DNA of 64,000 bases from an archaeon (GTDB taxonomy: Archaea > Nanobdellota > Nanobdellia > Pacearchaeales > GW2011-AR1): contig JABHWZ010000009.1 of the NCBI GenBank assembly GCA_018657525.1, positions 2,855 to 66,854 of the forward strand, given 5' to 3'. Both the position numbers and the translations under genes were made by a program. Each line of letters starts with the position of its first letter. Positions within the stretch are counted from its first letter, which is position 1. The notes beneath the pieces were generated by a model. The model made no database searches and had not been told where the DNA came from. It was given only the letters and a program-made list of their open reading frames with translations. Shown one piece after another: positions 6,937 to 25,808 of this stretch.

Positions 6937-6976
6937 CACTGCTCAGTGTACCTCTTTTTGCGGAGTGCTTGGGCAA
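6937..6976. repeat. family E 40-nt mini-element, copy 1
   Basis: cactgctcagtgtacctctttttgcggagtgcttgggcaa; related copies at 35599-35638 and 58082-58118. Confidence 0.8.
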
Positions 6977-6993
6977 AGCCTGCAGAGGGATTC
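6977..6993 (-). pseudogene. partial copy of the tRNA-Thr 3' end (positions 57-73)
   Basis: agcctgcagagggattc versus agcctgcggagggattc at 7150-7166 (16/17). Confidence 0.8.
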
Positions 6994-7149
6994 CTTTATC
7001 TCCTAATCACGATTTGCACTTTTAAAAATACCTTCGGTAATTTATTAAATCGTAATTACTCGACCCCCAATTGAAAGTTGCTTTGAGTTTACGTGACTTG
7101 GAATCCTGCCAGGATTAATAATATTTAACAAAGTTAAATATTATAGATA

Positions 7150-7221: not shown

Positions 7222-7275
7222 ATATATAATTATTTTAGAAACAGGTATTTAAAGATTTATTCTTTGGTGTCTTAC

Positions 7276-7311
7276 GCCCAGTATTTCGCAATTTGGGTGA
7301 TGCCTATTGGC
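7276..7311. repeat. family F element, copy 2; overlaps the stop codon of rps3ae
   Basis: gcccagtatttcgcaatttgggtgatgcctattggc; see 6839-6876. Confidence 0.8.
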
Positions 7312-8577: not shown

Positions 8578-8637
8578 ATTAATTTATCTTAATCTGAGTT
8601 TAAAAAGGTTTTTATATTGGTGGTCCCGTAGTTATTT

Positions 8638-8760
8638 GGGTTTCTTTTTTCAAAAAAAGAAAAGCTACAGTGTAAAAGAAAACTAAAATTGAAATCTTGA
8701 ATAAGATTTGTGAGTTAGAATCGTTTTCTCTTGCAATCCGAAGAACGATTCCTGTAGGGG
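8638..8760. repeat. family C structured intergenic element, copy 1
   Basis: Shares the hairpin series with 45339-45558 and 61571-61874; the central hairpin loop is inverted (gaat versus attc) and the last stem differs by compensatory changes. Confidence 0.8.
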
Positions 8761-8771
8761 ATTTTAATAAA

Positions 8772-11283: not shown

Positions 11284-11454
11284 ATGGATAATGAAGTATT
11301 GAACTGGATTGGAAATGCGCTAAATTTTTTAATTTTAGTTTATCTTATCCGTACGAATATTATTTTGGGTAGTTTTAATTTCGAGCAAAGCTTAATTGCT
11401 ACTTTTGGATTGTTTGTTGCAGTTTTGATTCAACTTTATAATATAAAAAAATGA
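11284..11454 (+). CDS. small membrane protein (56 aa)
   Basis: Two hydrophobic segments; ATGA overlap with the 1998-aa gene. Confidence 0.4.
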   Translation: MDNEVLNWIGNALNFLILVYLIRTNIILGSFNFEQSLIATFGLFVAVLIQLYNIKK

Positions 11455-14400
11455 TAAATAAAAGAATTTTGTTGGTTGGAATGTTTTTGATATTTGGGAT
11501 ATTTTTATTTGGCGGGGTTAATGCAGCTTATTCAAGTGCGACTCCACAAATTAGTTCTTTTGGGGGAGGGTCTTCTTCATATTTGGCAAAACAAGGAATT
11601 AATTTATTCCCGACAGGGATTGGTGAAAATGGTCAGTGTGGTGCGGGGCAGGATTTTGTTTTACAGATTCATCCGTTAGGATGTAGCCCGAGTTTGGTGA
11701 CTTCTGATTTATTGGAGGAACAGAATGTTCCTGTTTTTTGTCCGATTGTTGCAACGCAAATAAATCCTTTAATTAAAATTAATGCAATTGATTCTATGAT
11801 TTTTTCTGGAACTTATCCTCCAGAGATTTCTGGAATTGGTTTTCATCCGGCTAATGCGGCTGTGTCTGGGCCGGGCAATGATTTGTTGAATTATCCTGTT
11901 TTAGAAAATGTCGGTTATGCAGTAATTGTTTTGAATAGAAATGAGAATGAATCTTCGATGCCGGATTATGTAGAAGGGAATTTGACTGCTAAGATTAGAT
12001 ATGATATTGAAAACGCATTTGGCTTTGGGGATTTTAGAACTTCTATTCCGATAATGAGTGATGTTGAATGGGATGCAAGATATAATGAATTTAATTTTTG
12101 GCAAGGGAAAGGGTTTGTGCGAGTTATGGATATTGATGGGGAAAAGGCAAGTGTTGCGGTGTATGAAGATAAAGATAGAAGGATAGCTAATTTTGATTTA
12201 AAGGTCGGAGAGAGTTCTAGGAAGATTTATCTTGGAGGAAGCTACTGCCTCGCTGGTCTGCAGGTAAAGTTGGAAAATTTGGAGAATCCAGATACAAAGG
12301 TTCGGTTAAAGGTGGATGAAGATTATTTTGAGGTGGGAGTGGGTGAGAAGTTTTTAGAGAATCGATGTACTGTTAATAATATTCAGAAAACAGGTTTATC
12401 AAAGTCAACACAAATTACTTGTAAAGATGACGATAGTTCAAGAAAAGTTTTAAATTTTGAGATTAATCCACAGATAAGTTTGAAGGTTGGAGATAAAGAG
12501 AAGAATTATGTTTTAGGAGATAATTTTAAAATTGGAGAACAAACTTATTATATAACTTATTTGGATTTGGCTGGAAAGTCTACAAATGAAAATTTAATTG
12601 TTTGGATTGCTAGTTTAGATGAGGCTGATACTAAAAAATATGTTAATAATGGAAAATTGAATTCAAGAGGAATTGATGTTTTTTATGAGAATGTTATTTC
12701 AAAACAGGAGGAAGATTTTACTAAGGGGAAAGTGTCAAATAAGAATGTTTGGAAATTAGTTTATGGAAGTAATAATTATGCTAATGTTAATGTCGATGTT
12801 AAAGGATTTGCTAAGTTAGGGGGAACAGGAGAGGAAGGAGTAAATAATGCATGTTCTGATGCTCAAGATTGGTGTCCTCATTTTTTGAATGCTGTTAATC
12901 TTTATAGTGAGGAGTCTGTAAATATTATTAAAGAGGGAAAGGAAGTTAAATATTCTGAACCCGGACTTTTATTTTATAAAAATATTGGGCAGGTTGATAA
13001 ATATAGCTCTCAAATTTCTGGGTTAGAAACTTATACTGAGAAAGGAATTAAAGAGGGGATTGAGTTAGCGATGAAAGTGGAGGATTATGCGAGGAGAGAT
13101 AATTTGATTAGAATTCTTTTAGATAATTTTAATACTAAGGCTAATCAGTTGTATGTTGAAAATAAAATTAATAATTATTATTTGAGTAATTCTGCTGGGC
13201 TTCGAGTAAGCGAGAGTATTTATATTTCGGGCCAGCATAGGGATATAGAATTTGTAGATATTTATCAACCGGGTTTTGAAGATTATGGTGTGGAATTGCA
13301 AATTAGTGGAACCGGAGATAAGATTCGTTTGAGTAAGAATTCTCCGAGTTATTTGTTTAAAGGAAAGATTATTGAATTAGTCGAGTTAAAGGAAAATGAA
13401 GTTAAGCTTAGCACCAATATTGAATCTACTGAACAGAATTCAAGAAATATAATTATTTTGAAACAAGGTGAGGTGAAATCTTTTGTTTTAGAAGAAGGTG
13501 AGATAGAAAATAAATATTCCCTTAAAATAAATAAAATTAATTTAAACAAAGTTGCGAAGGTTAGTGTTTTAGCGAATATTGATAGGACTGGAACTGATGC
13601 AAATATAAGTTTTAAAATTGGAATTGAAAAGCGGGCGATTGATTTGAGTCCGGAGAGAATTGAAAAAATGATTGATAGTTTAAATGAGAGTTTAGTTAAA
13701 TGGGAAGAGAGGTCAGAAAAATTAGGAAACGTCGTCGATGGTTTACAAAAAGCGTGTATTGTAACTGCAGGAGTTTTGACGGTTAAGAATTTATTTTTGC
13801 AGGCAGGAGGGCAGGTAAAAGCAAGAAAGCAAACTATGGAAGATATTAGAGTCTTTTGTAAAAAGACTGATAAATATAAGGGAGATATTCAAGATTGTAT
13901 AAATCAGAAAGGAGAATTGATTGATCAATTACAGAAGACAAACGAAAAGATTGTAAAAGAGCAGGATGCTCGAAGTAAAGAGATAAAGGAAAATTTAGAG
14001 AAAAAGAAATTAGAAGAAGGGCAGAATTATGACACTGAATTTAAGAAAGAATATATTGAAGTAAAAGGATATCAAAAGGAATTGGATGGGCAGTTTGTTT
14101 CAATTGATGAAATGATGGAATATGATTCTTGTAAACAGAGGTTGGTGAAAGATTCTTATTCTACGGGGGTTCTGAAAGAAAAATGTGAGGATGTTGTGAA
14201 GAAGTATGAAACGCAGGTGAGCGAAGCCAAGGCCGTAGAGAATGCAAGATTAGAACGAGAGGGAGAGATTGGGCTAGTAGTTAGCGGAGTTCCAAGTGTT
14301 TTGGCCTTTGCTCCTAAAAATGCTCATTCAGGGATTTGGTCTGGTCAAACTACTGAGGGGAGCAAGATTTCTAATGAATTTTCAGGGGAAAAAAATGTTC

Positions 14401-17400
14401 AGTTTGTTACTCTTTCTGGGGAAGATTATGTTTTAGTTTTAGCAGATAATCCGGATGCAAAAGGAAGGTATTCAGTTACTGATGCTTATAAGTATCAGGG
14501 ACTTAGTGGAGGTTCATTTAAGGGATGGGAAAAAAGTGACACTTTGAAATCTAAATTTATTTTTACAAAAGCAGGTCAGTATAAAACTCCAATTAATAAT
14601 CCTCAAGTGAGATATTTTGGTGCGGCGCCTGATAAAGATTTTCCTGCGATTGTTCCTTTTCCTTATCCTTCTCGGGAGAATAATGGTTATTATGTTGGGG
14701 TAAGGCATAAAACTGTGACTGGGCAATATGCTAAGTCTGGAGAGGCAAAGAGTTATTATGTTTGTAATGCAATGGATGGGGAAATTGATTTTAATCCAGA
14801 GAATCAACAGTTTATGGGGGGAGATAAGTGTATTGGAGTGAATCTTGTTGGAACTAATTTAGTGACTTCGCAAAAGGCGTTTGGTTTATCTGAAGCACAG
14901 ACGAAAGATGTAGTTAGTGCGGCATCGAGGGCAATTAATGAGGCGCAGAGAAAAGTTGGTTCTTCAGCTAAAGGGAGTATTTTGGGGATGGATGTGAATT
15001 TTGGCGACGCTGTATTTAGTACTCCACAAATGCAATGTCAGGATTTTATGTCTCCAACTGATTGTGCTTGGTTATTTAATTTATGTGACCCAGTAATTTG
15101 TCCTGCTTCAAGATGTGATTTTGGAGGTGCAATGCCTGTGGCTGACCCTATTCAGTCTGGGATAATTGGAAGTTTGATTTTATGCTTGCCAAATTTTAAA
15201 ATTGATCCAATGAAAGGTGTTTTGATGCCTGTTTGTTTGACTGGTTTGAAAGCAGGGATGGATGGTTATATTTCAGTTGTTAAGAGTCACAGAGATTGTT
15301 TGATTGAGAAAAAAGAGACTGGGAAAACTGTTGGAATTTGTGATGAGGTTTATAGTTATAATTTGTGTCAGTTATTTTGGCAACAGGTTGCTCCGTTAAA
15401 GGATTTGTTAATTCCTAAGCTTTTGCAATTGTTAACTGGAGGAGGTTTGGGAAGAGGGGGAGGAGAGTATACTAATGCTGCTGCTGCTTGGCAGAATGCG
15501 AGAGATTCTTTGAGTTTTTTTACTCAAAATTATGCTACTACTGCTTATCAAACTTTTAAAGTTCAAGCGGTTGATGAATTACAAAATGAAGTTTGTAAAA
15601 ATTCTATTTCGTCAGTTATCCCTGAGATAGGAGTTTTGAATTCTATGGTTGAGCCGAGTTCGCCGCCTCAATTCCACGCTAAATTTGATGAGGTTTTGTT
15701 TACAGATGCTACTGTGCCACCAATTTCAAAATATAAGGTGTTCTACCATGTATTTGCTGGAAAGAGCTCTGGAGTAAGTTATCAGGTCTATTTGAAGGCA
15801 TCTAGCGAGGGGATTTCACTTTACAAGATTAATCCAACTTATGTTGTGAATAGTGGGTTTATTCCTTTGGGAGAGAGTGCGACTGAGACAAAAGATTTTA
15901 CTGCGCCGACAGGATATGTTGAATTGTGTGTTCGGGTTAATAACCAAGAAGAGTGCGGATTTAAACAGGTGACGACTTCGTTGGCTTTGGATTATCTTAA
16001 TGATCAATTTGTGCAAAATGAAGTAGAGAATACTGAGATTAAAACAGAGGTAGAGTGTATTTCAGGAGGGAATAATATTTACAGCTTTGTGAGTCCGAAT
16101 TTGCAAGGGGGGGCAACTGAATTTGCTAATCCAGATATTTCTCAGCGAGGGATAACCCGTGTTTGTTCAAGTGGAGTTCCGGATGGATTGGTGGAAGAAA
16201 TGAGCAAGTGGGTGAGAGTGGGATATTGTGATGATACAAATTTGGGATGTTGGATTGATAAAGACAGCGTCGAGAATGCAATTACTTTTGCTGGGGCAGA
16301 AGAAGAAACACTTTCAAAATTAAGTTCTGAAACCTTAAATAGATTAGCGGGAGGAAGTATGAATATTGAGGCATATAATAATAATGTGGAGAAAGTTAAA
16401 TTAAATATTGCAGAGATTGAGAAAAGTGGTGATAGAACAAAGGAAACACAAACTGTTAGATTAATTGAACAAACAGCTTTGGTTTCAACTTATTTTACTC
16501 AAGTTCCATTTGATTGGCAGAAGGCAGAGCTGACTTATTTGAAGGCGAGGATTTATGATGTTTTGACAAGGTTAGTTTATAATAAAGAGAGTGGGGAGAG
16601 TCAGGGGGTTGCTCCTTTAACTGATAAAGAGAAAGAATTGATTAATGCTGCAAAAGAGGACAATATTGATAAGGTTCGTTCATTAATTGAGGATGGAGCA
16701 AATGTTAATGCTAAAGATAATGAGGGATTTACTGCATTATTCTATGCTTTAGAACTGAATTATTTTGATATTGTTAATTCATTAATTGATAATGGAGCAG
16801 ATGTTAATACTAATGGGAAAGGGGGAGTGACCCCATTAATCTACGCCTCTTTTTATGGCTATGAAGATTTTGTTAATTCATTAATTGAAAAAGGAGTAGA
16901 TAATTTCAATGCTCAGACTGATGTAGGGATGACTGCCCTAATTCATGCATCACGACAGGGTTATGAGAATATTGCGCAATTATTGATTGAAAAAGGGGCA
17001 GATGTTAATGTTAAAGATGATAAGGGAAATACTGCTTTAATGTATGCTAAGGATGGAGGTTATGAGAATATTGTGCAATTATTGATTGATAATGGGGCAG
17101 AGAGCTCTACTGAAGGTGAAGGGGATCTAGTTGAAGTGACTAGTCCAAAATTGGATAAGGAGAAGACAGGGTTTTATGATGGAGATATTAAAATTCGTTC
17201 AGTAGATTATGGAAAAACAGTAATTTTTAAAATCGTTACTTCTGGGTCTAATTGTGATAAAATTTCATATGACTTTTACAAAAGAGGAATTTTATCAAAT
17301 AATAAATTAAAGCCTTTGAATGAACAATCCTTTTCTTTTAAGAATCTTGTTGTTGGAAATTATTATGTTGATAATATTGTTTGTAAGGTTGGGGGCAAAA

Positions 17401-17447
17401 TCAGGGAAGATTTTGATCCTAAGATATTTGATTTAACTGTGAAATGA
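11451..17447 (+). CDS. giant secreted protein (1998 aa): Sec signal peptide, coiled-coil segment, Cys-rich hydrophobic core, about five ankyrin repeats, C-terminal beta-rich domain
   Basis: MINKRILLVGMFLIFGIFLFGGVNA-AYSS; ankyrin consensus (G.TALxxAxxxGxxxIVxxLIxxGADVN) at aa ~1730-1883; uninterrupted 6-kb ORF. Confidence 0.85.
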   Translation: MINKRILLVGMFLIFGIFLFGGVNAAYSSATPQISSFGGGSSSYLAKQGINLFPTGIGENGQCGAGQDFVLQIHPLGCSPSLVTSDLLEEQNVPVFCPIVATQINPLIKINAIDSMIFSGTYPPEISGIGFHPANAAVSGPGNDLLNYPVLENVGYAVIVLNRNENESSMPDYVEGNLTAKIRYDIENAFGFGDFRTSIPIMSDVEWDARYNEFNFWQGKGFVRVMDIDGEKASVAVYEDKDRRIANFDLKVGESSRKIYLGGSYCLAGLQVKLENLENPDTKVRLKVDEDYFEVGVGEKFLENRCTVNNIQKTGLSKSTQITCKDDDSSRKVLNFEINPQISLKVGDKEKNYVLGDNFKIGEQTYYITYLDLAGKSTNENLIVWIASLDEADTKKYVNNGKLNSRGIDVFYENVISKQEEDFTKGKVSNKNVWKLVYGSNNYANVNVDVKGFAKLGGTGEEGVNNACSDAQDWCPHFLNAVNLYSEESVNIIKEGKEVKYSEPGLLFYKNIGQVDKYSSQISGLETYTEKGIKEGIELAMKVEDYARRDNLIRILLDNFNTKANQLYVENKINNYYLSNSAGLRVSESIYISGQHRDIEFVDIYQPGFEDYGVELQISGTGDKIRLSKNSPSYLFKGKIIELVELKENEVKLSTNIESTEQNSRNIIILKQGEVKSFVLEEGEIENKYSLKINKINLNKVAKVSVLANIDRTGTDANISFKIGIEKRAIDLSPERIEKMIDSLNESLVKWEERSEKLGNVVDGLQKACIVTAGVLTVKNLFLQAGGQVKARKQTMEDIRVFCKKTDKYKGDIQDCINQKGELIDQLQKTNEKIVKEQDARSKEIKENLEKKKLEEGQNYDTEFKKEYIEVKGYQKELDGQFVSIDEMMEYDSCKQRLVKDSYSTGVLKEKCEDVVKKYETQVSEAKAVENARLEREGEIGLVVSGVPSVLAFAPKNAHSGIWSGQTTEGSKISNEFSGEKNVQFVTLSGEDYVLVLADNPDAKGRYSVTDAYKYQGLSGGSFKGWEKSDTLKSKFIFTKAGQYKTPINNPQVRYFGAAPDKDFPAIVPFPYPSRENNGYYVGVRHKTVTGQYAKSGEAKSYYVCNAMDGEIDFNPENQQFMGGDKCIGVNLVGTNLVTSQKAFGLSEAQTKDVVSAASRAINEAQRKVGSSAKGSILGMDVNFGDAVFSTPQMQCQDFMSPTDCAWLFNLCDPVICPASRCDFGGAMPVADPIQSGIIGSLILCLPNFKIDPMKGVLMPVCLTGLKAGMDGYISVVKSHRDCLIEKKETGKTVGICDEVYSYNLCQLFWQQVAPLKDLLIPKLLQLLTGGGLGRGGGEYTNAAAAWQNARDSLSFFTQNYATTAYQTFKVQAVDELQNEVCKNSISSVIPEIGVLNSMVEPSSPPQFHAKFDEVLFTDATVPPISKYKVFYHVFAGKSSGVSYQVYLKASSEGISLYKINPTYVVNSGFIPLGESATETKDFTAPTGYVELCVRVNNQEECGFKQVTTSLALDYLNDQFVQNEVENTEIKTEVECISGGNNIYSFVSPNLQGGATEFANPDISQRGITRVCSSGVPDGLVEEMSKWVRVGYCDDTNLGCWIDKDSVENAITFAGAEEETLSKLSSETLNRLAGGSMNIEAYNNNVEKVKLNIAEIEKSGDRTKETQTVRLIEQTALVSTYFTQVPFDWQKAELTYLKARIYDVLTRLVYNKESGESQGVAPLTDKEKELINAAKEDNIDKVRSLIEDGANVNAKDNEGFTALFYALELNYFDIVNSLIDNGADVNTNGKGGVTPLIYASFYGYEDFVNSLIEKGVDNFNAQTDVGMTALIHASRQGYENIAQLLIEKGADVNVKDDKGNTALMYAKDGGYENIVQLLIDNGAESSTEGEGDLVEVTSPKLDKEKTGFYDGDIKIRSVDYGKTVIFKIVTSGSNCDKISYDFYKRGILSNNKLKPLNEQSFSFKNLVVGNYYVDNIVCKVGGKIREDFDPKIFDLTVK

Positions 17448-17707: not shown

Positions 17708-17971
17708 ATGGATTATAAAACAGAAGAATGGTCTGACTATGAGGCAGATTGGTGGGGATTTGAAAAAGAATCATCTTTGTCAGTTGGAAAACAATCCTCT
17801 CAAGAACCTTTTGCTAACCCAAAAGATTCTGCTGACAAATATTTGGTTATTTTAGAAACAGCACTAGGTATTTCTCTAGAGAATAGACAAATTATACAAA
17901 TGATAATGGACAATCCCAAGATGAGTTTTGATATGAAAAATGTTAAGATTCATAGAAGGATTTTTGGGTAA
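17708..17971 (+). CDS. hypothetical protein
   Basis: aggagg RBS, ATG start, followed by a hairpin terminator. Confidence 0.45.
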   Translation: MDYKTEEWSDYEADWWGFEKESSLSVGKQSSQEPFANPKDSADKYLVILETALGISLENRQIIQMIMDNPKMSFDMKNVKIHRRIFG

Positions 17972-17991
17972 GGTTTATAATTTTAAATTAT

Positions 17992-18019
17992 GGGGCGAAA
18001 GCCCCTTTTTCTTTTTTTT
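17992..18019 (+). terminator. hairpin GGGGC-GAAA-GCCCC followed by a T-run
   Basis: Read directly at 17992-18005, with a T-rich tract to 18019. Confidence 0.6.
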
Positions 18020-18067
18020 AAAAGTTTTTTAAGCTGAGTTATACTACTTTTTTCATGCGGGTATGCC
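18020..18067 (+). repeat. copy 1 of the tRNA-Leu promoter plus tRNA positions 1-11
   Basis: aaaagttttttaagctgagttatactacttttttcatgcgggtatgcc is identical at 18020, 18244 and 18395. Confidence 0.9.
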
Positions 18068-18243
18068 TCCGAGCTTGCAATCTCAATTTGTAATATTTAG
18101 ATACTTTTTTGGTTGTTCTATTTTAGAATTCAAAATCCTCCTTCCATCCCCCTCCCTCCCGCCCGGAGGAAAAGTAATTATTGAATTCTAAAATTATTAA
18201 TTGGTTTAAATAAAGTCAAACTTGTTCTCCCACCCCTCAATTC

Positions 18244-18291
18244 AAAAGTTTTTTAAGCTGAGTTATACTACTTTTTTCATGCGGGTATGCC
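18244..18291 (+). repeat. copy 2 of the tRNA-Leu promoter plus tRNA positions 1-11
   Basis: Same 48-mer as 18020-18067 and 18395-18442. Confidence 0.9.
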
Positions 18292-18365
18292 TCCGAGCTC
18301 CCAACCCTGATTTTTTCCCATTACCCCTTTTTTATTTGAATAAACCCAAAATCAAAGTTGCTCGG
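18292..18365 (+). repeat. family B module, tRNA-Leu locus
   Basis: tccgagctcccaaccctgattttttcccattaccccttttttatttgaataaacccaaaatcaaagttgctcgg is about 88 percent identical to 22626-22697. Confidence 0.85.
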
Positions 18366-18394
18366 GTCAAACTTGTTCTCCCACCCCTCAATTC

Positions 18395-18431
18395 AAAAGT
18401 TTTTTAAGCTGAGTTATACTACTTTTTTCAT
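18395..18431 (+). promoter_or_regulatory. tRNA-Leu promoter (BRE/TATA-like aaaagttttttaagc about 27-37 nt upstream of the tRNA 5' end)
   Basis: A/T box at the canonical archaeal distance; a similar aaaagtt box lies upstream of tRNA-Cys. Confidence 0.5.
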
Positions 18432-18514
18432 GCGGGTATGCCGGAGTGGTCAAACGGGTCAGGTTTAGGACCTGATAGCTTATGCTTACTTAGGTTCGAA
18501 TCCTAATACCCGCA
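18432..18514 (+). tRNA. tRNA-Leu (anticodon TAG), long variable arm
   Basis: GCGGGTA acceptor, anticodon loop TTTAGGA, 15-nt variable arm, T-arm TTAGG-TTCGAAT-CCTAA. Confidence 0.9.
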
Positions 18515-18595
18515 TTTATTGAGATTCGAAGCCTCGGGTTTCGTTGAAGAATTGTGAAGCAATTGCTTTGGCGAGCGAGGATTTACATCCGACGC
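18515..18595 (+). repeat. family A module, tRNA-Leu locus (variant central segment)
   Basis: gattcgaagcctcgggtttcgtt...gagcgaggatttacatccgacgc shared with 21403-21604 (reverse strand) and 22832-22904. Confidence 0.85.
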
Positions 18596-18613
18596 CGAAT
18601 CCTAATATCCGCA
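18596..18613 (+). pseudogene. copy of tRNA-Leu positions 56-73
   Basis: cgaatcctaatatccgca versus cgaatcctaatacccgca at 18497-18514 (17/18); both are followed by tttatt. Confidence 0.9.
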
Positions 18614-18625
18614 TTTATTTTTTAT

Positions 18626-19573
18626 TTAATTATTTGTAGAATTATTTAGCTTTTTTTCTTTGGCTTCTTTTTCTTTTTGTTTGATTTTGTCTTCAAGTTC
18701 TAATCTTTCAATTAATTCCTTGTATCTATTTCTAATTGTTACTTCAGTTATTCCTGCTACATCTGCAACTTCTCTTTGAGTTTTCTTTTCATCATTTATT
18801 AAAGCAGCGACGTAAAGCGCAGCGGCAGCTATTCCGGCCGGGCCTCTTCCTGAAGTTAATTCAACTCTTTCAGCGTCTCTTAAAATTTTTAATGCTTCGT
18901 TTTGAGTTTTTGGTGAGAGCTTTAGTACTGAAGAGAATCTGGAAACATAATCCTTTGGAGATGATTGTTTTACTTTTATTCCAAGTTTTCTTATTACAAA
19001 TCTGTATGTTCTTCCGATTTCTTTTCTTTCTACATCTGAGGCAGTTGCCATTTCGTCGAGGGTTCTTGGAATATTATAGGAACGACAGGCGGCGTATAAG
19101 CAAGCAGCAATTACAGATTCCATACTTCTTCCTCTTACTAGTCCTCTTTGAAGAACATAGTTATAGATTCTTGATGCTTCGTCTCGGATTACATTTGGTA
19201 AATTTAGGTATGATGCTATAACTCTTAATTCGGCCATGGCTAATCTTAAGTTTCTTTCAATCGAAGTTGAAACTCTTTCTTGCCATTTTTTTAATCTTAA
19301 GAATTTTCTTGTTTGTCCTGGATCAAGTTTATAGATGTCAGAAATCTCCCCAATATTTGTCGTTAATCCCTTGTCAAATTTTTGCATAGAGATTGGCGCT
19401 CCTCCACGACCTTTTTTACCTGATTTATCAAATTGGCCTTGGGGGTCTATTCCAGTATCAACCATTTTATCTTCAACAACTAGCCCACAATCATTACAAA
19501 TGACTTCTCCTAAATGAGGATCATAATTTAAATGAATACTCCCACATTCAGGACATTTTTTTATATTTGGCAT
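18626..19573 (-). CDS. tfb: transcription initiation factor IIB (TFB)
   Basis: N-terminal zinc ribbon CPECGS...CNDCG followed by two cyclin-like repeats. Confidence 0.9.
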   Translation of the reverse strand: MPNIKKCPECGSIHLNYDPHLGEVICNDCGLVVEDKMVDTGIDPQGQFDKSGKKGRGGAPISMQKFDKGLTTNIGEISDIYKLDPGQTRKFLRLKKWQERVSTSIERNLRLAMAELRVIASYLNLPNVIRDEASRIYNYVLQRGLVRGRSMESVIAACLYAACRSYNIPRTLDEMATASDVERKEIGRTYRFVIRKLGIKVKQSSPKDYVSRFSSVLKLSPKTQNEALKILRDAERVELTSGRGPAGIAAAALYVAALINDEKKTQREVADVAGITEVTIRNRYKELIERLELEDKIKQKEKEAKEKKLNNSTNN

Positions 19574-19674
19574 TTTAGAAATTACTTTTGTTACTCTAGA
19601 GGTTTATAGTAAGATTTATAAAGCTTTTCTATTTATAAACTTTTCTATTTAAAAATTTATTTCAAAATGAGAAT

Positions 19675-20034
19675 TTATTCAATTAGAATTCCGTTAATAA
19701 CACCTTCTTGACTTGGCCTATTTGTGATTTTTGCTTTTCCAAGTGTGGTTTCTACAATTGTGCCTTTTGTTAAAATATTTTGTCTTGCTAGAAAACGATT
19801 TGAAGGAGTCTCGAGAACATTTTTAATTTCTGTCTTTTGAATTTTTTTATCTTTTAAAATATTTATTTTATTGTTCTTTAATGAGTATGTTTTTTTATTT
19901 CCGCCCATTGTTCTCAAGGTTCTTCTTTTTTCTTCTCCTAGTTTTACAATTCTTTTTTGCCCTGCTGTCTCGAAGGATTTTTTCTTTCTATTCTTGATAT
20001 ATTTTCCGCCAGTGATTTTTTTTCCTTTGTTCAT
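19675..20034 (-). CDS. rps8e: 30S ribosomal protein S8e
   Basis: KITGGKY...RKKKSFE.G...T.LGEEKRRTLRTMGGNKK...; start at ATG 20034 is preferred, the track start 20079 is possible. Confidence 0.8.
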   Translation of the reverse strand: MNKGKKITGGKYIKNRKKKSFETAGQKRIVKLGEEKRRTLRTMGGNKKTYSLKNNKINILKDKKIQKTEIKNVLETPSNRFLARQNILTKGTIVETTLGKAKITNRPSQEGVINGILIE

Positions 20035-20137
20035 GATATAATGGGCTATTTTTGATTTAAAAATGTTTTGACGCGTCATTTTGTGTAATAGTTGTTGCTA
20101 AATAGTAATGCGATAGGTTTAAAAGTCAATTCAGCCG

Positions 20138-20392
20138 TTGATAATTATGGTTAACGGAATCGAACGTCCTTTGGATTTGTTGAATAATTCAAAGAGCCAA
20201 GAAGTTATGGTGCAGTTGAAAAGCGGAAATAAGTTTGTTGGAACTCTTCTAGCTTTTGATATACACATTAATTTGGTTCTAGAGAATACAAAGGAAATGG
20301 ATGGAAGTGACATAAAACGAAACCTTGGTTTGACCTTTTTAAGGGGAGATACAATTATATTTATTTCTCCAGCGTCGACATCTTTGAAATAA
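20138..20392 (+). CDS. Sm-like (LSm) archaeal protein
   Basis: RPLDLLNNSKSQEVMVQLKSGNKFVGTLLAFDIHINLVLENT...LFLRGDTIIFISP (Sm1 and Sm2 motifs); the start could be 20147. Confidence 0.8.
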   Translation: MIIMVNGIERPLDLLNNSKSQEVMVQLKSGNKFVGTLLAFDIHINLVLENTKEMDGSDIKRNLGLTFLRGDTIIFISPASTSLK

Positions 20393-20475
20393 GTAAGCGT
20401 TTTTGTTTTAGTTTCGCAAGTTGTAAAATTTTGAATAGTGGTAACTCTTAAAAACTTAGGTTTATTCTGATAGTT

Positions 20476-21381
20476 ATGGCTACTAAAATTAAAATTACTT
20501 TTTTGGGAACTGCGGATGCAATTCCTAGCGTGAGAAGAAATCATTCAGCTGTATTTTTGAGTTATGATGCAGAGAATATTCTTTTTGATTGTGGGGAGGG
20601 GACACAGAGACAGTTTAGAAAGGCTAGATTAAACCCTGGGAAAGTAACACGTATTTTAATTACTCATTTACATGGGGATCATGTTTTGGGTTTACCTGGT
20701 TTAATGCAAACTTTGAGTTTGTCCAATTATAATAAAACACTTTATATTTATGGGCCAAAAGGTACAAAACAATTTGTTAGAGAAATGTTAAATACTTTTA
20801 AATTTCAAGAAAATTATCCAATTAAAGTGGAAGAAGTTTCTGGGAACTTTTTTGAAAACAAGCATTTTTATTTGGAAGCGGAAAAGATGATTCATGGAAT
20901 TCCTTGTAATGCATATAATTTTGTAAAAAAAGGAAAACTTAGAATTGATAAAAAAAAGTTGAAAAAATCTGGTTTGCCCGAAGGACCTTTGCTGTCTAAG
21001 ATTATTCAGGGGAAAGATGTTGTTTATCAAGGGAAGAAATTTAAATCAAAAGCTTTGACTTATCAAGATAAGGATTTGAAAGTGAGTTTTGTGATGGATA
21101 CTTTAGATAATAAAAGAATTGTGCCTTTTGTTAAAGGGGCAGATGTTTTTGTTTCAGAATCTACATTTAGCTTGGAGGAAAAAGATAAAGCCGAAAAGCA
21201 TAAACATTTGACGTCGGAACAAGCAGCTAAAATTGCAAAAAAAGCAAAAGTAGGGAAATTAATATTAACTCACATTAGTGCTCGTTATGATAAAAATCCT
21301 AAGAAAATTTTACTAGAAGCAAAAAAGATTTTTAGAAAGTCTGAAGTAGTTAAGGATTTAGATGTTTTGGAAGTGGAATAA
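20476..21381 (+). CDS. rnz: ribonuclease Z
   Basis: ITFLGT...FDCGEGTQRQ...ITHLHGDHVLGLPGL, metallo-beta-lactamase tRNA 3' endonuclease pattern. Confidence 0.85.
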   Translation: MATKIKITFLGTADAIPSVRRNHSAVFLSYDAENILFDCGEGTQRQFRKARLNPGKVTRILITHLHGDHVLGLPGLMQTLSLSNYNKTLYIYGPKGTKQFVREMLNTFKFQENYPIKVEEVSGNFFENKHFYLEAEKMIHGIPCNAYNFVKKGKLRIDKKKLKKSGLPEGPLLSKIIQGKDVVYQGKKFKSKALTYQDKDLKVSFVMDTLDNKRIVPFVKGADVFVSESTFSLEEKDKAEKHKHLTSEQAAKIAKKAKVGKLILTHISARYDKNPKKILLEAKKIFRKSEVVKDLDVLEVE

Positions 21382-21384
21382 ATA

Positions 21385-21495
21385 TGGCCCGGACAGGATT
21401 CGGCGTCGGATGTAAATCCTCGTTCGTCCGCTATTGAATTTCTGAAGCGAACGAAACCCAAGGCTTCGAATTCAAAAATAATTTCTTAAAAATTA
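21385..21495 (-). repeat. tandem unit 1: tRNA-Arg positions 56-73, family A module, and a copy of the tRNA trailer
   Basis: tggcccggacaggattcg (18/18 with 21605-21622) followed by gcgtcggatgtaaatcctcg...; starts 3 nt after the rnz stop. Confidence 0.9.
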
Positions 21496-21604
21496 TGGCC
21501 CGGACAGGATTCGGCGTCGGATGTAAATCCTCGCTCGTCCGCTATTGAAATTCTGAAGCGAACGAAACCCAAGGCTTCGAATCCAAATAATTTCTTAAAA
21601 ATTA
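21496..21604 (-). repeat. tandem unit 2: tRNA-Arg positions 56-73, family A module, and a copy of the tRNA trailer
   Basis: About 95 percent identical to unit 1; periods of 111 and 109 nt. Confidence 0.9.
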
Positions 21605-21679
21605 TGGCCCGGACAGGATTCGAACCTGCGACTTTCAGCTTAGAAGGCTGACACTCTATCCAGGCTGAGTTACCGAGCC
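21605..21679 (-). tRNA. tRNA-Arg (anticodon TCT)
   Basis: Reverse complement GGCTCGG acceptor, anticodon loop CTTCTAA, T-arm GCAGG-TTCGAAT-CCTGT. Confidence 0.9.
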
Positions 21680-21733
21680 ATAATAATATTTAAGATAAAA
21701 ACATATTTAAAAGTGTTTGTTTTTAAAGTTAAA

Positions 21734-22576
21734 ATGAAAAAGAGTGTGAAAACACTGAGTTTTCCGGTTAGAGGAAAATACGTTGTAATGCTAGCACCAA
21801 GTTTTGTGGTGGATTTTTCTTACCCTGAAATTATTTTAAAATTAAGACGTCTTGGTTTTGATAAAGTTGTCGAATTAACTTTTGGAGCAAAATTAGTTAA
21901 TAGAGAATATCATAAATTGCTAAAAAAATGTCCCTCAGGATGTTTGATGATTTCTTCTGTTTGTCCTGGAGTGGTGAGTTTAATTAATAATAAATTTTCA
22001 AAGTTAAAAAAGAATTTAATTTTGATAGATAGTCCAATGGTGGCTATGGCGAAAGTGTGCAAGAAAATTTATCCTAAACATAATGTTGTTTTTATTTCTC
22101 CTTGTGAATTTAAAAAACAAGAGGCTGAGGGTTGTAAGGAAATTGATTTTGTGATTAATTTTAATGAATTAAAAGAAATTTTTGCAAAGAAACTTTTTAA
22201 GAGAGAAGATAAAAATTTGTCTACAAGTTTTGATAGGTTTTATAATGATTATACAAAAATATATCCTCTTGCTGGGGGGTTGAGTAAGACAGCTCATTTG
22301 AAAAATATTTTAACAAATAAAGAAAGTATTTCAATAGATGGAATTAAGAGAGTGGAAACTTTTTTAAAAAAAGGAAATTTTGGGAAGTTGAAATTTTTGG
22401 ATGTGAATTTTTGTGTAGGGGGTTGTGTTGGAGGGCCTTACATTAATTCAAGTGTGCCTTTGGTTGTTAAAAAATTAAAAGTAAGAGGTTATTTGAGAAA
22501 ATCTAAACAAGAAGATATACCTGAAATTAAAAAAGGTTTAGTAAAAAAAGCAAAAGGAATTAGTTTGAAGAAGTAA
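21734..22576 (+). CDS. [FeFe]-hydrogenase large-subunit C-terminal-domain-like protein
   Basis: SSVCPGVV, SPMVAMAK, ISPCEFKKQEA and CVGGCVGGP echo the H-cluster-domain motifs TSCCPGW, SPQQM, MPCTAKK and CPGGC. Function unknown. Confidence 0.55.
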   Translation: MKKSVKTLSFPVRGKYVVMLAPSFVVDFSYPEIILKLRRLGFDKVVELTFGAKLVNREYHKLLKKCPSGCLMISSVCPGVVSLINNKFSKLKKNLILIDSPMVAMAKVCKKIYPKHNVVFISPCEFKKQEAEGCKEIDFVINFNELKEIFAKKLFKREDKNLSTSFDRFYNDYTKIYPLAGGLSKTAHLKNILTNKESISIDGIKRVETFLKKGNFGKLKFLDVNFCVGGCVGGPYINSSVPLVVKKLKVRGYLRKSKQEDIPEIKKGLVKKAKGISLKK

Positions 22577-22615
22577 AGAAATAGTTTTAAATAGTGTTTT
22601 CTTAAGTAATTATGT

Positions 22616-22697
22616 GCGCGGATGGTCTGGCTCCCAACTTTGATTTTTTCTCATTACCCCTTTTTTATTTAAATAAACCTAAAATCAAATTTGCTCG
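22616..22697 (+). repeat. copy of tRNA-Cys positions 1-10 (22616-22625) followed by a family B module (22626-22697)
   Basis: gcgcggatgg equals 22759-22768; tctggctcccaactttgattttttctcattaccccttttttatttaaataaacctaaaatcaaatttgctcg matches 18292-18365. Confidence 0.85.
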
Positions 22698-22758
22698 ACG
22701 GCTACATTGTAGCCTTGTACCATCAACTTTAAAAGTTCTGAATTTCTATTTATTTCAT

Positions 22759-22831
22759 GCGCGGATGGCACAGCGGCTACTGCGTCTCCCTGCAGAGGAG
22801 ATTTTCACGGGTTCGAGTCCCGTTCCGCGCT
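22759..22831 (+). tRNA. tRNA-Cys (anticodon GCA)
   Basis: GCGCGGA acceptor, anticodon loop CTGCAGA, T-arm ACGGG-TTCGAGT-CCCGT. Confidence 0.85.
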
Positions 22832-22904
22832 TTAGACGAGAATCCTTGGGTTTCGTTCGCTTCAAAAATTCAATAGCGGACGAGCGAGGATTTACATCCG
22901 ATGC
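22832..22904 (+). repeat. family A module, tRNA-Cys locus
   Basis: ccttgggtttcgttcgcttcaaaaattcaatagcggacgagcgaggatttacatccgatgc is nearly identical to the tRNA-Arg(TCT) units. Confidence 0.9.
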
Positions 22905-22922
22905 CGAGTCCCGTTCCGCGCT
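22905..22922 (+). pseudogene. copy of tRNA-Cys positions 56-73
   Basis: cgagtcccgttccgcgct is identical (18/18) to 22814-22831. Confidence 0.9.
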
Positions 22923-22962
22923 TTTCCCTAAAATTTAAAAACGTGTAGTGTATAATATTTTT

Positions 22963-24747
22963 ATGTATATTGTTAAACAACCTGTGAAGGGGAAGGATTA
23001 TTTTTATCTTCGGAAAAGCGTTAGAGAAAATGGAAAAGTTGTTAGTAAGTCTGTTGCGTATCTTGGAAAAACAAAAACTGATGCAGAGAAAAGATTTAAA
23101 GAGCTAAAAAATCATGGAAAATTGGAGGATTTTGAAAATAAAATTTTAGGGAAAAATGATATGAAAAAATTGGAAACTGAAAAGAATATGGATCAAGAAA
23201 AAATGAAAAAAACTGAAAGTGAATCTATAAAAAATAAAGAAATTAAAGTTTCTACAGATGAGAAAGAATTTTTGAGTTTTCTCAATGAGTCTGGTTTGGT
23301 TTGGGGTCCGAGTCCTGAGATTTATGGTGGGCTTGCAGGATTTTATACTTATGGTCCGTTGGGAAAGTTGTTAAAAAATAAAGTGGAAGATTCAATAAGA
23401 AAAATTTTTAATTCAAATGGTTTAAGGGAATTAGAGTCTCCAACTATTTTGCCAGATTCAGTATGGAAAGCTTCAGGGCATTTAGAAACTTTTAAAGATA
23501 GAACAATAAATTGTTCAAAGTGTAAGGCAGTTTTTAGAGCAGATAAATTAATTGAAGAAAAATATGATGTTCCGGCAGATTCTTTTTCAAATGAGAAGAT
23601 TCTAAATTTTATTGACGAGAAAGGAATTAAATGTCCGAGTTGTAAGGGATTGATGGAAAAATCAATTGATACTCAAAGTTTGATGATGAAGACAAAAGTG
23701 GCTGGGAAGGATGCTTCTTTAAGGCCTGAGACTGCTACAGGAACTTATTTACCATTCACTAGATTTTATAATTATTTTAGGAAAAAACTTCCGTTGGGGG
23801 TTTTTCAAATTGGTAAAGCATATAGAAATGAAATTTCTCCTCGGCAACATGTTTTAAGGGGGAGGGAGTTTACGCAAGCTGAAGGACAAATGTTTGTTGA
23901 TCCTGAAACAAAAAATAATTGGGAGAAATATGAATTAATAAAAGGGGAAAAGTTGCCGTTTTGGAATTCTGAAAGTCAAGAGTCAGATAAATCTGTGGTA
24001 AAGATTACCGTGGCAGAGGCTTTGAAAAAAGGAGATATAAAAAGTCAAGCATATGGTTGGTGTATTTGGTTAGCTTATACTCAGTTTATTAATTTAGGTA
24101 TTCCTTCAGATAGAATTCGTCTGCGACAACATCATCCGGATGAAAAAGCATTTTATGCCGACGACGCTTGGGATATAGAAGTTAAATTAAATAATTATGG
24201 TTGGTTTGAAATGTGCGGAGTTCATGACAGAACAGATTATGATTTAACTCAGCATTCCAAATTTTCGGGGGTTAAATTGGAAGCGGCAAGAGAGAATGGG
24301 GAGAAGTTTGTACCGCATGTTTTAGAAATTGCCTTTGGTACTGATCGTCCGACTTATGCGTTGATTGATATTTTTTACGATAAGAAGGAAGAAGGAGAAG
24401 GGAAGTCAATGTTTAAAATTCCTTATTGGATTGCTCCAATTGATTGTGCTATTTTTCCTTTGGTTAAGAAACCTGAATTATTTAAAATTGCAGAAGACAT
24501 TAAGGAAAGTTTAGAAAGAGAATTTGTCGTCGAGTATGACCTTGCAGGGAGTATTGGTAAAAGGTATTTAAGAAGTGCAGTGGCAGGTATCCCTTATGCA
24601 ATTACTGTTGATTTTGATTCTATTGAAAATGGTGATGTAACTTTGAGAGATCGTGATACTGAAAAGCAAGTTCGTGTTAAGATTTCTGAATTGAAAAATA
24701 TTTTGAGAAAATTAATAAATCAAGAACTCAGCTTCGACAAATTATAA
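22963..24747 (+). CDS. glyS: glycyl-tRNA synthetase (archaeal/eukaryotic type) with ~115-aa N-terminal extension
   Basis: SPEIYGGLAGFYTYGPLG, class II motifs, RPETATG, FRNEISPR. ATG 22963 lies about 27 nt after the aaatttaaaa box, suggesting a leaderless mRNA. Confidence 0.85.
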   Translation: MYIVKQPVKGKDYFYLRKSVRENGKVVSKSVAYLGKTKTDAEKRFKELKNHGKLEDFENKILGKNDMKKLETEKNMDQEKMKKTESESIKNKEIKVSTDEKEFLSFLNESGLVWGPSPEIYGGLAGFYTYGPLGKLLKNKVEDSIRKIFNSNGLRELESPTILPDSVWKASGHLETFKDRTINCSKCKAVFRADKLIEEKYDVPADSFSNEKILNFIDEKGIKCPSCKGLMEKSIDTQSLMMKTKVAGKDASLRPETATGTYLPFTRFYNYFRKKLPLGVFQIGKAYRNEISPRQHVLRGREFTQAEGQMFVDPETKNNWEKYELIKGEKLPFWNSESQESDKSVVKITVAEALKKGDIKSQAYGWCIWLAYTQFINLGIPSDRIRLRQHHPDEKAFYADDAWDIEVKLNNYGWFEMCGVHDRTDYDLTQHSKFSGVKLEAARENGEKFVPHVLEIAFGTDRPTYALIDIFYDKKEEGEGKSMFKIPYWIAPIDCAIFPLVKKPELFKIAEDIKESLEREFVVEYDLAGSIGKRYLRSAVAGIPYAITVDFDSIENGDVTLRDRDTEKQVRVKISELKNILRKLINQELSFDKL

Positions 24748-24852
24748 AATTAATAATTAGTTTTTTAATTGAAAATTTATTTTTTATTGTTACTAAGAAA
24801 AGTTTTTAAAGTTCTTTTACTTGATTTGAGTAATTAAATTGAGGTGATATAA

Positions 24853-25050
24853 ATGCCAAAAGCTATCAAAACTGTTAAAGCAGCAAACAATGAAATCAAA
24901 AGGTTGAAGAAAGCTATGAAGAAAGTGGAAGTGCGTAAGAAGAAGTTAAGTGTTAAACCTAAGAAAGTAGTTAAGAAAAAGGCTGTGAAGAGGAAATCCA
25001 AGAAACCAGCCAAGAAGAAAAAAGCAGCTAAGAAAAAGAAAAGACGTTAA
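24853..25050 (+). CDS. small lysine-rich basic protein (possible chromatin or nucleic-acid binder)
   Basis: gaggtga RBS; roughly half of the 65 residues are Lys/Arg. Confidence 0.55.
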   Translation: MPKAIKTVKAANNEIKRLKKAMKKVEVRKKKLSVKPKKVVKKKAVKRKSKKPAKKKKAAKKKKRR

Positions 25051-25194
25051 GTCTATTTTTTTATTTTTTTTTATTGATTAGTTAAAACCCGAGGACAAAA
25101 AGTTCAATGAAGGGAAGTGATGTAAATATTTTTAAATTGTAATTGATTGTGTTTTTTATTGAAAGTGATTGTATTTTTTGTAGGGGAGAAATTA

Positions 25195-25212
25195 TGGCTC
25201 TGGTGAGAGTTT
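25195..25212 (-). pseudogene. copy of tRNA-Met positions 56-73
   Basis: tggctctggtgagagttt is identical (18/18) to 25413-25430. Confidence 0.9.
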
Positions 25213-25412
25213 GTCGCTTCGCTCTCTACTCCGTAGAATGAGAGTTTCTATTTAAATTTGGAAATCTCATGATCACTTCGTTCTCTACTTCGTAGAACAT
25301 CAATTTCTGTAGAAATTGACATAAACCACCGACGTTCTGTGGAACAAAAAGTTATCTGAATTTTGGGAGCCTAAATTCTCAAAAATTTAAATGGCATTGA
25401 AAATGCCATAAA
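25213..25412. repeat. 200-nt mosaic insert: D-short (25213-25238), atgaga...tctcat hairpin module (25239-25270), D-long (25271-25360), hairpin atggcattgaaaatgccat
   Basis: Matches 6751-6840 (family D) and the atgaga...ttggaaaatctcat module at 46483-46576. Confidence 0.8.
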
Positions 25413-25485
25413 TGGCTCTGGTGAGAGTTTAACTCACGACCTCTGCCTCATGAGAGCAGCGCTCTAAACACTGAGCTACAGAGCC
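25413..25485 (-). tRNA. tRNA with CAT anticodon (elongator Met or Ile2) with atypical D and T loops
   Basis: Reverse complement GGCTCTG acceptor, anticodon loop CTCATGA, D-loop AGTGTTTA, T-loop TTAAACT. Confidence 0.75.
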
Positions 25486-25544
25486 AAACTTAAAAGAATA
25501 ATTTCATTTAAAAGGTTTTTTAAAGTTTAATTCTATCCAGGAAT

Positions 25545-25808
25545 ATGGTTTTAGGTGATGTAGCAAGCAATTTAACTCAAATTAATCAATCTACGGATTT
25601 TTTTACGGATCTAATTGTGGAAGTGGGTAAAATTGGTCTTTGGTTGCAAACTTTGGGAATTTTTGTTATTCTCTGGTTAGTCTTCCAAATTATTAATTTT
25701 TTATTGAATAGAAAAAGAACTAATTTAACTGATAGTTTTAAAGTAGAGATAAAACAAATAAATACTAAACTTAATCGGATTGAAAAATTGATAAAAAAGA
25801 AAATTTAA
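25545..25808 (+). CDS. small membrane protein
   Basis: One clear TM (IGLWLQTLGIFVILWLVFQIINFLL) and a coiled C-terminus. Confidence 0.5.
   Translation: MVLGDVASNLTQINQSTDFFTDLIVEVGKIGLWLQTLGIFVILWLVFQIINFLLNRKRTNLTDSFKVEIKQINTKLNRIEKLIKKKI

Follow-up and report, generated by a model that had tools for sequence, protein, structure and literature searches.

The DNA analysed here is a stretch of 64,000 nucleotides (nt) from contig JABHWZ010000009.1 of a DPANN archaeon (hereafter the window), in which the promoter of the tRNA-Leu(TAG) gene, together with the first 11 nt of the gene itself, occurs three times in tandem. We interpret these three copies as recombination sites duplicated by two small non-coding modules, which lie stacked 5' of tRNA-Leu, and the comparable duplications at other tRNA genes of the region as akin to att-site integration by miniature, non-coding, promoter-bearing modules whose recombination with tRNA genes would take place in the regions of the D-loop and T-loop. 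The interpretation is carried by duplications that are cognate and side-specific, by cassettes shuffled between loci, by retained promoters, by copy variation between strains, by empty sites in relatives and by an arm found across species; as the enzyme and the mobile intermediate are inferred, we put the probability of both the local and the general form of the interpretation at about 0.5.

The repeated 48-mer, AAAAGTTTTTTAAGCTGAGTTATACTACTTTTTTCATGCGGGTATGCC, is present without a single mismatch at 18020-18067, 18244-18291 and 18395-18442 (0 matches in 100 shuffled sequences) and only its third copy extends into the tRNA, exactly as a sequence-only reading of this DNA had described. It is composed of 37 nt of upstream DNA, i.e. 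the promoter, and nt 1-11 of tRNA-Leu(TAG), a gene delimited at 18432-18514 by Rfam and at 18431-18515 by ARAGORN. In what follows, R denotes the promoter plus tRNA nt 1-11, O the heptamer GTCAAAC, E a 22-nt block, B the hairpin cassette of family B and M a hairpin module. On the forward strand, R1 (18020-18067, with tRNA nt 1-11 at 18057-18067 and a B recognition element (BRE)/TATA-like AAAAGTTTTTTAAG in its promoter) stands directly 3' of the terminator hairpin belonging to an upstream open reading frame (ORF) of 87 amino acids (aa), and is followed by the 8-mer TCCGAGCT (18068-18075), which with a cassette termed cargo 1 occupies 18068-18214, and by a first O+E block (18215-18243; GTCAAAC, then TTGTTCTCCCACCCCTCAATTC). 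The second unit consists of R2 (18244-18291, again promoter and tRNA-Leu nt 1-11), family B (18292-18365) and a second O+E block (18366-18394) preceded by CTCGG, after which R3 leads into the intact tRNA (18395-18514). As had been noted from the letters, copies 1 and 2 of the 48-mer continue alike, with the 8-mer, and both units close with the same 29-mer, GTCAAACTTGTTCTCCCACCCCTCAATTC. The 8-mer has no other occurrence in the window and at 18068-18075 is probably a degenerate copy of tRNA nt 12-15. Since the 29-mer precedes both copy 2 and copy 3, these two form an exact repeat of 77 nt.

The two cassettes are different hairpins. Cargo 1 contains a run of six T (T6; 18105-18110) and, around a C-rich loop, the inverted repeat previously noticed, which forms a perfect hairpin (fold z = -3.85) with arms of 14 nt (18120-18133 and 18181-18194, 100% complementary) and not the 13 first counted. 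Family B has the predicted TGATTTT/AAAATCA inner stem and internal T-run, to which we can add a closing helix, CCGAGC/GCTCGG (z = -3.3), and the presence of two T6 runs (18311-18316 and 18328-18333). Its counterpart upstream of tRNA-Cys, at 22630-22697, matches it at 91% identity. A 61-aa ORF (18222-18407, forward strand) spans the array, and a 108-aa ORF (22612-22938, forward strand) spans tRNA-Cys and its arrays and is a gene call in a public assembly (L005, 636-962); both are almost certainly spurious.

Four features had no place in the sequence-only reading: the identity of GTCAAAC with the tRNA D-loop, a partial copy of the tRNA 3' end downstream of the gene, the recurrence of family B at tRNA-Cys and the presence of the same architecture at every tRNA of the window. 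The first seven nt of the 29-mer are nt 18-24 of the tRNA-Leu D-loop, and the order within a truncated copy is thus tRNA nt 1-11(15), cassette, nt 18-24 and block E. On the other side of the gene, the trailer TTTATT and a family A cassette (18515-18596, forward strand; T-arm-like GATTCGAAGCC, module M at 18541-18574 and the conserved right arm GAGCGAGGATTTACATCCGACGCC) are followed by a partial copy of the 3' end (18597-18619), in which nt 57-73 recur at 18597-18613 with one mismatch (GAATCCTAATATCCGCA) and TTTATT is repeated after them; the cassette between the gene and this copy measures 76 nt.

Extension by 10 kb on each side of the window (84 kb in total) brings in one more tRNA gene, tRNA-Gln. 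Direct, same-strand copies of the gene's own termini were found on the cognate side of all seven tRNA genes, while none of 42 non-cognate pairs of fragment and locus gave a match and opposite-strand copies were absent. Arrays lie 5' of Gln, Leu and Cys and 3' of Thr, Leu, Arg-TCT, Cys, Met and Arg-TCG. Upstream copies span nt 1 to ~22-24 and are interrupted within the D-loop by a hairpin module, their last part being a 7-10-nt identity to the D-loop (GTCAAAC at Leu, CGGCTAC at Cys, GTGGTCAAG at Gln), and downstream copies span nt 57-73, starting at nt 56/57. Terminal direct repeats beside a retained intact gene, the arrangement of a tRNA att-site element, are therefore found at seven of seven loci, the intact genes being recognised by both ARAGORN and Rfam. 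Copies that are cognate and side-specific, that have their end within the D-loop or their start within the T-loop, and that come with an intact gene and, on the 5' side, with a new promoter, are together the signature of recombination with DNA that carries a gene end.

Three of the seven tRNAs share family A, with one cassette at Leu, two at Arg(TCT) and one at Cys (95% identity between loci), and at all three it adjoins the local tRNA's own nt 57-73, copied exactly at Arg(TCT) and Cys. The Arg(TCT) 3' array (21383-21604, reverse strand) comprises two family A cassettes, each followed by an exact 17-nt copy of nt 57-73 (complementary to forward-strand 21385-21401 and 21496-21512). At tRNA-Cys, the 5' array (22616-22758, forward strand) reads tRNA nt 1-10, family B (the only other copy of it besides that at Leu), CGGCTAC at 22699-22705, a spacer and a second, different promoter, and the 3' array (22832-22922, forward strand) reads family A and the 17-nt copy (22906-22922). 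The 5' array of tRNA-Gln begins with a promoter and nt 1-14; an insert of 56 nt separates these from nt 15-23, and 46 nt holding a new promoter then lead to the intact gene. Within the insert lies an inverted 34-nt module, reverse-complementary (97%) to the central part of the family A cassette at Leu. The 3' arrays of Met, Thr and Arg(TCG) carry other hairpin modules, some of them common to the three. At Met (25195-25411, reverse strand) ~200 nt of modules in common with the Thr array and with family C precede an exact 3'-end copy at ~25195-25212; at Thr (6751-7149, reverse strand) modules are combined with nt 57-73, copied at 16/17 positions (6977-6993), and, beside the module at 6752-6812, with a further copy that has decayed; at Arg(TCG) (46451-46600, forward strand) two degenerate copies of T-arm plus acceptor surround two identical 37-nt hairpins (46483-46519 and 46541-46577). 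An inverted repeat of ~35 nt with 89% identity (6842-6877 and 7277-7311) encloses tRNA-Thr and part of its 3' array and could be the substrate or the trace of an inversion. Another repeat family of ~90-130 nt occupies intergenic regions without tRNAs (8635-8765, 45336-45552 and 61568-61782, in tandem at 61576 and 61697) and bears the GGGGTTCTTTTTTCAAAAAAAGAACC hairpin and the AAATCTTATTCAAGATTT palindrome.

A structure of this kind might have arisen without any integration, namely by local tandem duplication of tRNA ends through slippage or unequal crossing-over, possibly provoked by hairpins or G-quadruplexes, with subsequent insertion of palindromes into the dispensable copies in the manner of MITEs (miniature transposable elements with inverted repeats) and with gene conversion keeping the copies identical. 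Such a history would leave Leu promoters that do not differ over 37 nt, and second and third copies that do not differ over 77 nt, as observed; the genome is rich in small palindromic repeat families, tRNA-free intergenic regions included; modules are found in both orientations; and a recombinase was not found in the 84 kb examined. Compared with MITEs, the cassettes give a mixed picture: family B occurs in two copies and has a terminal helix (CCGAGC/GCTCGG), with a 4-nt flanking repeat (GGCT) at Cys only, and family A has a conserved right end and variable left ends. In keeping with local duplication, cargo 1 and family B bear the only G-quadruplex-type motifs nearby: the complement of the cargo 1 loop (18148-18164, reverse strand), GGGCGGGAGGGAGGGGG, is the only tight motif (loops <= 7) in the 84 kb, and with loops <= 12 we counted 5 motifs against 0.2 expected from shuffles, two of the five inside the tRNA-Leu 5' array (18148-18164 and 18300-18327, reverse strand). 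Tracts of the GGGTGGG type also stand beside tRNAs of relatives (L011, ~7085-7100 and ~7385-7397; L021, downstream of tRNA-Arg). However, neither block E nor the second promoter of Cys or of Gln derives from local upstream DNA, so these are not simple tandem duplications; slippage does not predict the same D-loop and T-loop boundaries in seven unrelated tRNAs; and at three tRNAs family A always adjoins nt 57 of the cognate fragment. Based on these differences, we consider local duplication an unlikely origin of the arrays. As regards a common recombination motif, GAGCGA was not enriched (12 observed vs. 9.1 expected).

Under the integration hypothesis, a module would consist of a hairpin cassette (cargo 1 or B), GTCAAAC with the 22-nt arm E, its own correctly spaced archaeal promoter and tRNA nt 1-11, and would insert by recombination of its tRNA-like segment with the resident gene. 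After insertion the tRNA body would be transcribed from the promoter brought in by the module, and the old promoter would be stranded upstream, followed by a truncated 5' fragment (nt 1 to ~24) that a hairpin interrupts. A circular form of the second Leu unit, comprising B, O, E, promoter and nt 1-11, would measure 151 nt, and a crossover in nt 1-11 or in the promoter would reproduce the observed structure exactly; because a crossover beyond the other side of B would disrupt the tRNA, the cassette would always come to lie in the stranded copy. The tandem array could then result from repeated insertion or from unequal crossing-over between the 77-nt repeats. The same process would operate genome-wide at two structural positions, recombination at the D-loop duplicating the 5' end and recombination at the T-loop duplicating nt 57-73. 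As catalyst we envisage a site-specific tyrosine-type recombinase acting in trans, by analogy with pTN3-like integration into the 5' half of tRNA genes and with T-loop att sites.

Several observations weigh against this proposal. Pfam searches of selected window ORFs and the precomputed annotation of the flanks (84 kb) yielded neither an integrase nor a transposase, a Cas1 or a reverse transcriptase, and a 347-aa ORF near tRNA-Met gave no integrase signal in Pfam even at E <= 1. The modules measure ~90-220 bp and have no coding content, and a full-length parent element was not seen. Viral contigs held no match to family A, family B, the 29-mer, the module common to Thr and Met or a degenerate O+E, and when GTDB representative genomes and Joint Genome Institute (JGI) metagenomes were searched for the core of family A, chance matches in bacterial coding DNA were all that was returned. 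Family A is accompanied by the cognate 17-mer at each of three tRNAs, for which a classical attP model requires three target-adapted sublineages; simple integration leaves the constant hairpin interruption of the stranded 5' fragment at the D-loop unexplained; and the identical Leu promoters, unlike those at Cys and Gln, fit plain tandem duplication or gene conversion as well.

A TTTAAA-type box lies ~34 to 25 nt before the mature 5' end of seven of seven intact tRNAs and of every truncated 5' copy (Leu, Cys and Gln); for the window tRNAs the upstream regions holding the boxes are 7222-7260, 18395-18431, 21680-21720, 22725-22758, 25486-25530 and 46335-46377. The truncated Leu copies, for which an apparently intact promoter had been claimed, do retain at the level of motifs a BRE/TATA-like box, AAAAG TTTTTTAAG, at -37 to -24. 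At Cys and Gln the stranded promoter and that of the intact gene are different sequences with equal TATA spacing, so that the intact gene's promoter evidently arrived with the inserted DNA, as judged from the sequences; at Leu all three promoters are identical. The arrangement left by a pTN3-like element, in which the element supplies the promoter and the old promoter with a 5' fragment is left behind, is recognisable, at the level of motifs only, at Cys and Gln. The near-fixed spacing of the boxes suggests leaderless or near-leaderless tRNA transcripts, of the type described for Nanoarchaeum, and a scan with Rfam revealed no RNase P RNA in the window.

With TATA-like boxes kept at the right distance, initiation at the truncated copies is plausible, and to this extent the earlier suggestion of short RNAs that begin with a tRNA 5' leader finds some support from the motifs. 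T6 runs follow the predicted starts at +54 in copy 1 and at +36 and +53 in copy 2, and archaeal RNA polymerase usually terminates at such runs; the predicted RNAs would thus be abortive, ~36-54 nt long, and show no unusual structure (z ~0). Under the integration hypothesis the stranded promoters would probably fire and the T6 runs would cut the RNAs short, leaving them as by-products. Dedicated small-RNA genes are unlikely, given the T6 runs, the z ~0 and the absence of an Rfam match. That all tRNAs are affected on the cognate side, that the 3' arrays have no promoter, that modules are exchanged and inverted and that copy number varies between strains instead points to products of DNA recombination.

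It is nevertheless conceivable that the truncated copies are functional transcription units or leaders, giving rise to an RNA that would open with a tRNA 5' fragment, have a hairpin where the D-loop should be and close with O+E, and that would play a role in the expression, processing or regulation of tRNA-Leu. The intact, correctly spaced promoter motifs support this possibility, as does the complementarity of CCAC(N)CC in E to D-loop G12-G18, in which the sole substitution falls at an unpaired position (a single case, judged by inspection). On the other hand, the T6 runs of the window species, 36 and 54 nt after the starts, precede O+E, so E would rarely be transcribed; the predicted RNAs are unstructured; 6 positions distinguish the two copies of family B, and the changes are not convincingly compensatory; and the same grammar governs the promoter-less 3' arrays. 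In Rfam only the tRNAs reach the gathering score, and at E <= 5 nothing credible was obtained over the cassettes in 17900-25600. The cassettes accordingly match no structured RNA family of Rfam, C/D box small RNA (sRNA) and attC-like models included; C/D box sRNA hairpins were also dismissed because proper C/D boxes are absent.

Comparison with relatives bears on the functional and the integration hypothesis alike. Among related genomes, the tRNA-Leu loci L015, L009 and L011 have no arrays and represent the empty site; L006 is occupied on the 3' side only, by an insert of 37 nt, behind which nt 57-73 recur with 16/17 positions matching; L022 is occupied; and L014 is a variant in unit number. 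Copies of the kind described above were found at two of 11 tRNA loci of related species, and the upstream 87-aa ORF is an orphan of this population. Relative to the TFB gene, the tRNA-Leu block lies one way in the window and L015 and the other way in L006, L009, L011 and L022 (window 18430-18505 vs. L022 2046-2122).

L022 comes from a marine relative of another species, with TFB DNA 78% identical to that of the window. Its 5' side is built of a promoter, nt 1-15, an unrelated 53-nt insert, GGTCAAAC and an E-like block, which adjoins the intact tRNA directly, a second promoter being absent, and downstream of the gene lies a 3' copy in degenerate form. The sequence CTCGG+GTCAAAC+E of the window is 90% identical over 31 nt to L022 2014-2044, which compares with 88% for the tRNA, while the remaining intergenic DNA, promoter and cassette included, cannot be aligned. 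As to the junction and the 29-mer, for which the sequence-only reading had recommended a search elsewhere in the genome, TCCGAGCT is confined to its two positions in the window, the viral contigs lack the 29-mer, and CTCGG+O+E has this counterpart in L022. In both species the truncated 5' fragment equals the functional copy, although the species differ at nt 5-7. The 99-nt segment before the intact L022 tRNA-Leu (1949-2047) opens with the gene's own nt 1-15, and its truncated copy has the only recognisable promoter; judging from this arrangement, tRNA-Leu of L022 is probably made with a long leader containing a tRNA fragment.

For a functional RNA, L022 supplies further arguments: a sole promoter at the truncated copy, which probably makes the 99 nt the leader of pre-tRNA-Leu, an O+E segment conserved like the tRNA and better than TFB DNA, and a 5' fragment that follows the functional copy of each species. 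However, the cassettes between the conserved junctions (cargo 1, family B and the L022 insert) are unrelated, as expected of cargo and not of a functional core, and close relatives do without arrays. Weighing these points, we regard a functional role of the truncated copies as distinctly unlikely.

Keeping in mind that the repeats are long relative to short reads, the tandem array could also be an artefact in which strain variants with a common 48-77-nt repeat were threaded into a false order. Two other assemblies of the same population, L004 and L005, are 100% identical to the window wherever they overlap it outside gap and break. L004 gives the order R1, an N-gap over cargo 1, R2-B-E-R3-tRNA, and the L005 contig terminates at the 29-mer. 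L014, from a co-occurring strain, opens with a junction of B-end, E, R and B that does not occur in the window, which means either two tandem B units or the 151-nt circle and not cargo 1 followed by B; such a variant is also what unequal crossing-over between local duplicates would be expected to yield. The break in L005, the N-gap of L004 and the different junction in L014 are as an artefact would leave them. Against this, cargo 1 and family B each end in the 29-mer and the repeat, and must have repeats on their flanks in any arrangement; the scaffolding of an independent assembly reproduces the same order; and the same grammar holds at six other tRNAs, where the repeats are not identical, and in other species. 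The order of the units is therefore reproducible, and in part supported by independent assemblies, in a repeat that is hard to assemble, and we consider an artefact extremely unlikely. Over the tRNA-Leu region and the greater part of TFB, L014 agrees with the window at 100% identity. Its 77 mismatch positions, in 83-353 (window ~19230-19500), are concentrated in the first ~270 nt of TFB, a divergent stretch with the look of a tract acquired by recombination from a diverged lineage.

The cassettes are located in the D-loop and the T-loop, positions from which non-canonical introns of archaea are known. The arrays might thus reflect disrupted-tRNA biology, either as split tRNA halves or as bulge-helix-bulge (BHB) introns cut by a splicing endonuclease, and an alpha4-type EndA is indeed present: a 173-aa protein with both domains is encoded at 28991-29512 on the reverse strand, and no intron was seen in any tRNA. 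The model of Sugahara et al. ties the gain of introns to attP x attB recombination (PMC3293823). Each locus, however, already has an intact intron-free tRNA, the TCCGAGCT junction has no complementary partner in the window, and terminator T-runs follow each tRNA. When the T-loop junctions of Leu and Arg and the D-loop junctions of Gln and L022 were threaded manually, inspection revealed no 3-nt bulge, 4-bp helix and 3-nt bulge with flanking helices. Split genes or BHB introns are consequently very unlikely here. A reverse-transcription origin of the 3' fragments was ruled out, on reasoning only, as there is no CCA and a stop at 1-methyladenosine 58 (m1A58) would not account for copies that begin with nt 57. 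The likeness of family B to integron attC sites (CCCAAC...GTTG) was rejected since GTT is kept in one of two copies, with no intI and no ORF cassettes, and an array of the type of clustered regularly interspaced short palindromic repeats (CRISPR) because the 'spacers' are recurrent families and no cas domains were found by Pfam in the ORFs scanned.

The locus belongs to a genome with a guanine-plus-cytosine content of 32% and with genes for TFB, S8e, LSM and EndA, the nearest TFB homologues being labelled Candidatus Pacearchaeota. A 1998-aa ankyrin-repeat ORF (11451-17447, forward strand) lies just upstream and contains 99-nt DNA tandem repeats at 16645-17101. Partial tRNA genes are classic footprints of integrating viruses and plasmids; here, in a genome-reduced episymbiont, end copies accompany every tRNA gene examined, on both sides and with tiny non-coding cargo exchanged between loci. 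Provided that mobilisation occurs in trans, the modules would be the smallest tRNA-targeting integrative units known and would make wholesale replacement of tRNA promoters possible, which matters especially where these promoters keep a fixed distance from the mature 5' end. A broader and rather doubtful proposition is that they form a new class of ~90-220-bp non-coding hairpin cassettes that colonise, in a DPANN archaeon, practically all tRNA genes at both ends by D-loop and T-loop recombination, with replacement promoters or terminators and a cross-species O+E arm, as a trans-mobilised integron- or MITE-like system that would also remodel tRNA transcription through stacked promoters or, as in L022, a tRNA-fragment leader. 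On the practical side, the arrays break assemblies and generate spurious ORF calls, and they offer natural material on the possible starts of tRNA gene disruption, intron gain and split genes.

Among known systems, CRISPR and casposons resemble the arrays in the alternation of identical 'repeats' with different 'spacers' and in apparent growth beside a fixed anchor, and casposons also target tRNA 3' ends; here, in contrast, the spacers are recurrent cassette families, the repeats are gene ends of variable length, and no cas or casposase gene was seen in the 84 kb. With cis-mobilisable elements (CIMEs), MITEs and palindrome-associated elements the modules share small non-coding repeats, hairpins or terminal inverted repeats, presumed mobilisation in trans and an intergenic location, but CIMEs are kilobase-sized and MITEs make short fixed target duplications and carry no gene ends or promoters, whereas here 10-48 nt of the cognate tRNA end are duplicated. 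According to the proposal of Sugahara et al., an attP that carries an insertion can donate it to a tRNA (PMC8371274; PMC3293823). The Caldiarchaeum locus behind this model (Sugahara et al. 2012, PMC3293823) likewise has, following recombination of a mobile element with the gene, a 5' tRNA fragment upstream of the functional copy and a tRNA-like att segment with an insertion, but its insert, 1.8 kb long, codes for a recombinase and an intron is gained by the functional gene, whereas the inserts described here are tiny and the functional copies intron-free.

The closest parallels are integrative. A crossover centred on a loop, with identity to the gene end, is the organisation of tRNA att sites, and in archaea the attB/att identity can reach across the D-loop and past the limits of the gene (PMC8371274). 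At the T-loop att sites that tyrosine integrases use (Williams 2002, cited in PMC8371274), the same repeats extend from T-loop to 3' end (nt 57-73, sometimes with the trailer) downstream of an intact tRNA; the present arrays differ in their non-coding cargo of 37-220 nt, in an attR side without a symmetric T-stem partner and in the use of one family at three tRNAs. Suicidal, SSV-type integrases of the pTN3-like kind use the 5' half of a tRNA gene, and the recombinant tRNA is expressed from the element's promoter (Cossu et al. 2017, via review PMC8371274). In common with the present loci, the 5' part of the tRNA serves as attB, an intact tRNA is reconstituted under an element promoter, and the old promoter with a 5' fragment stays upstream. 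Here, however, the inserts measure 126-224 bp and have no integrase gene, int(N)/int(C) halves or coding remnants, the stranded fragment is always interrupted by a hairpin, units occur in tandem, the host belongs to DPANN and every tRNA examined is affected. Cumulatively, these comparisons suggest that the arrays belong to a known kind, the att-site duplications of tRNA genes, in a form that is unusual in being miniaturised, non-coding, arrayed and pervasive.

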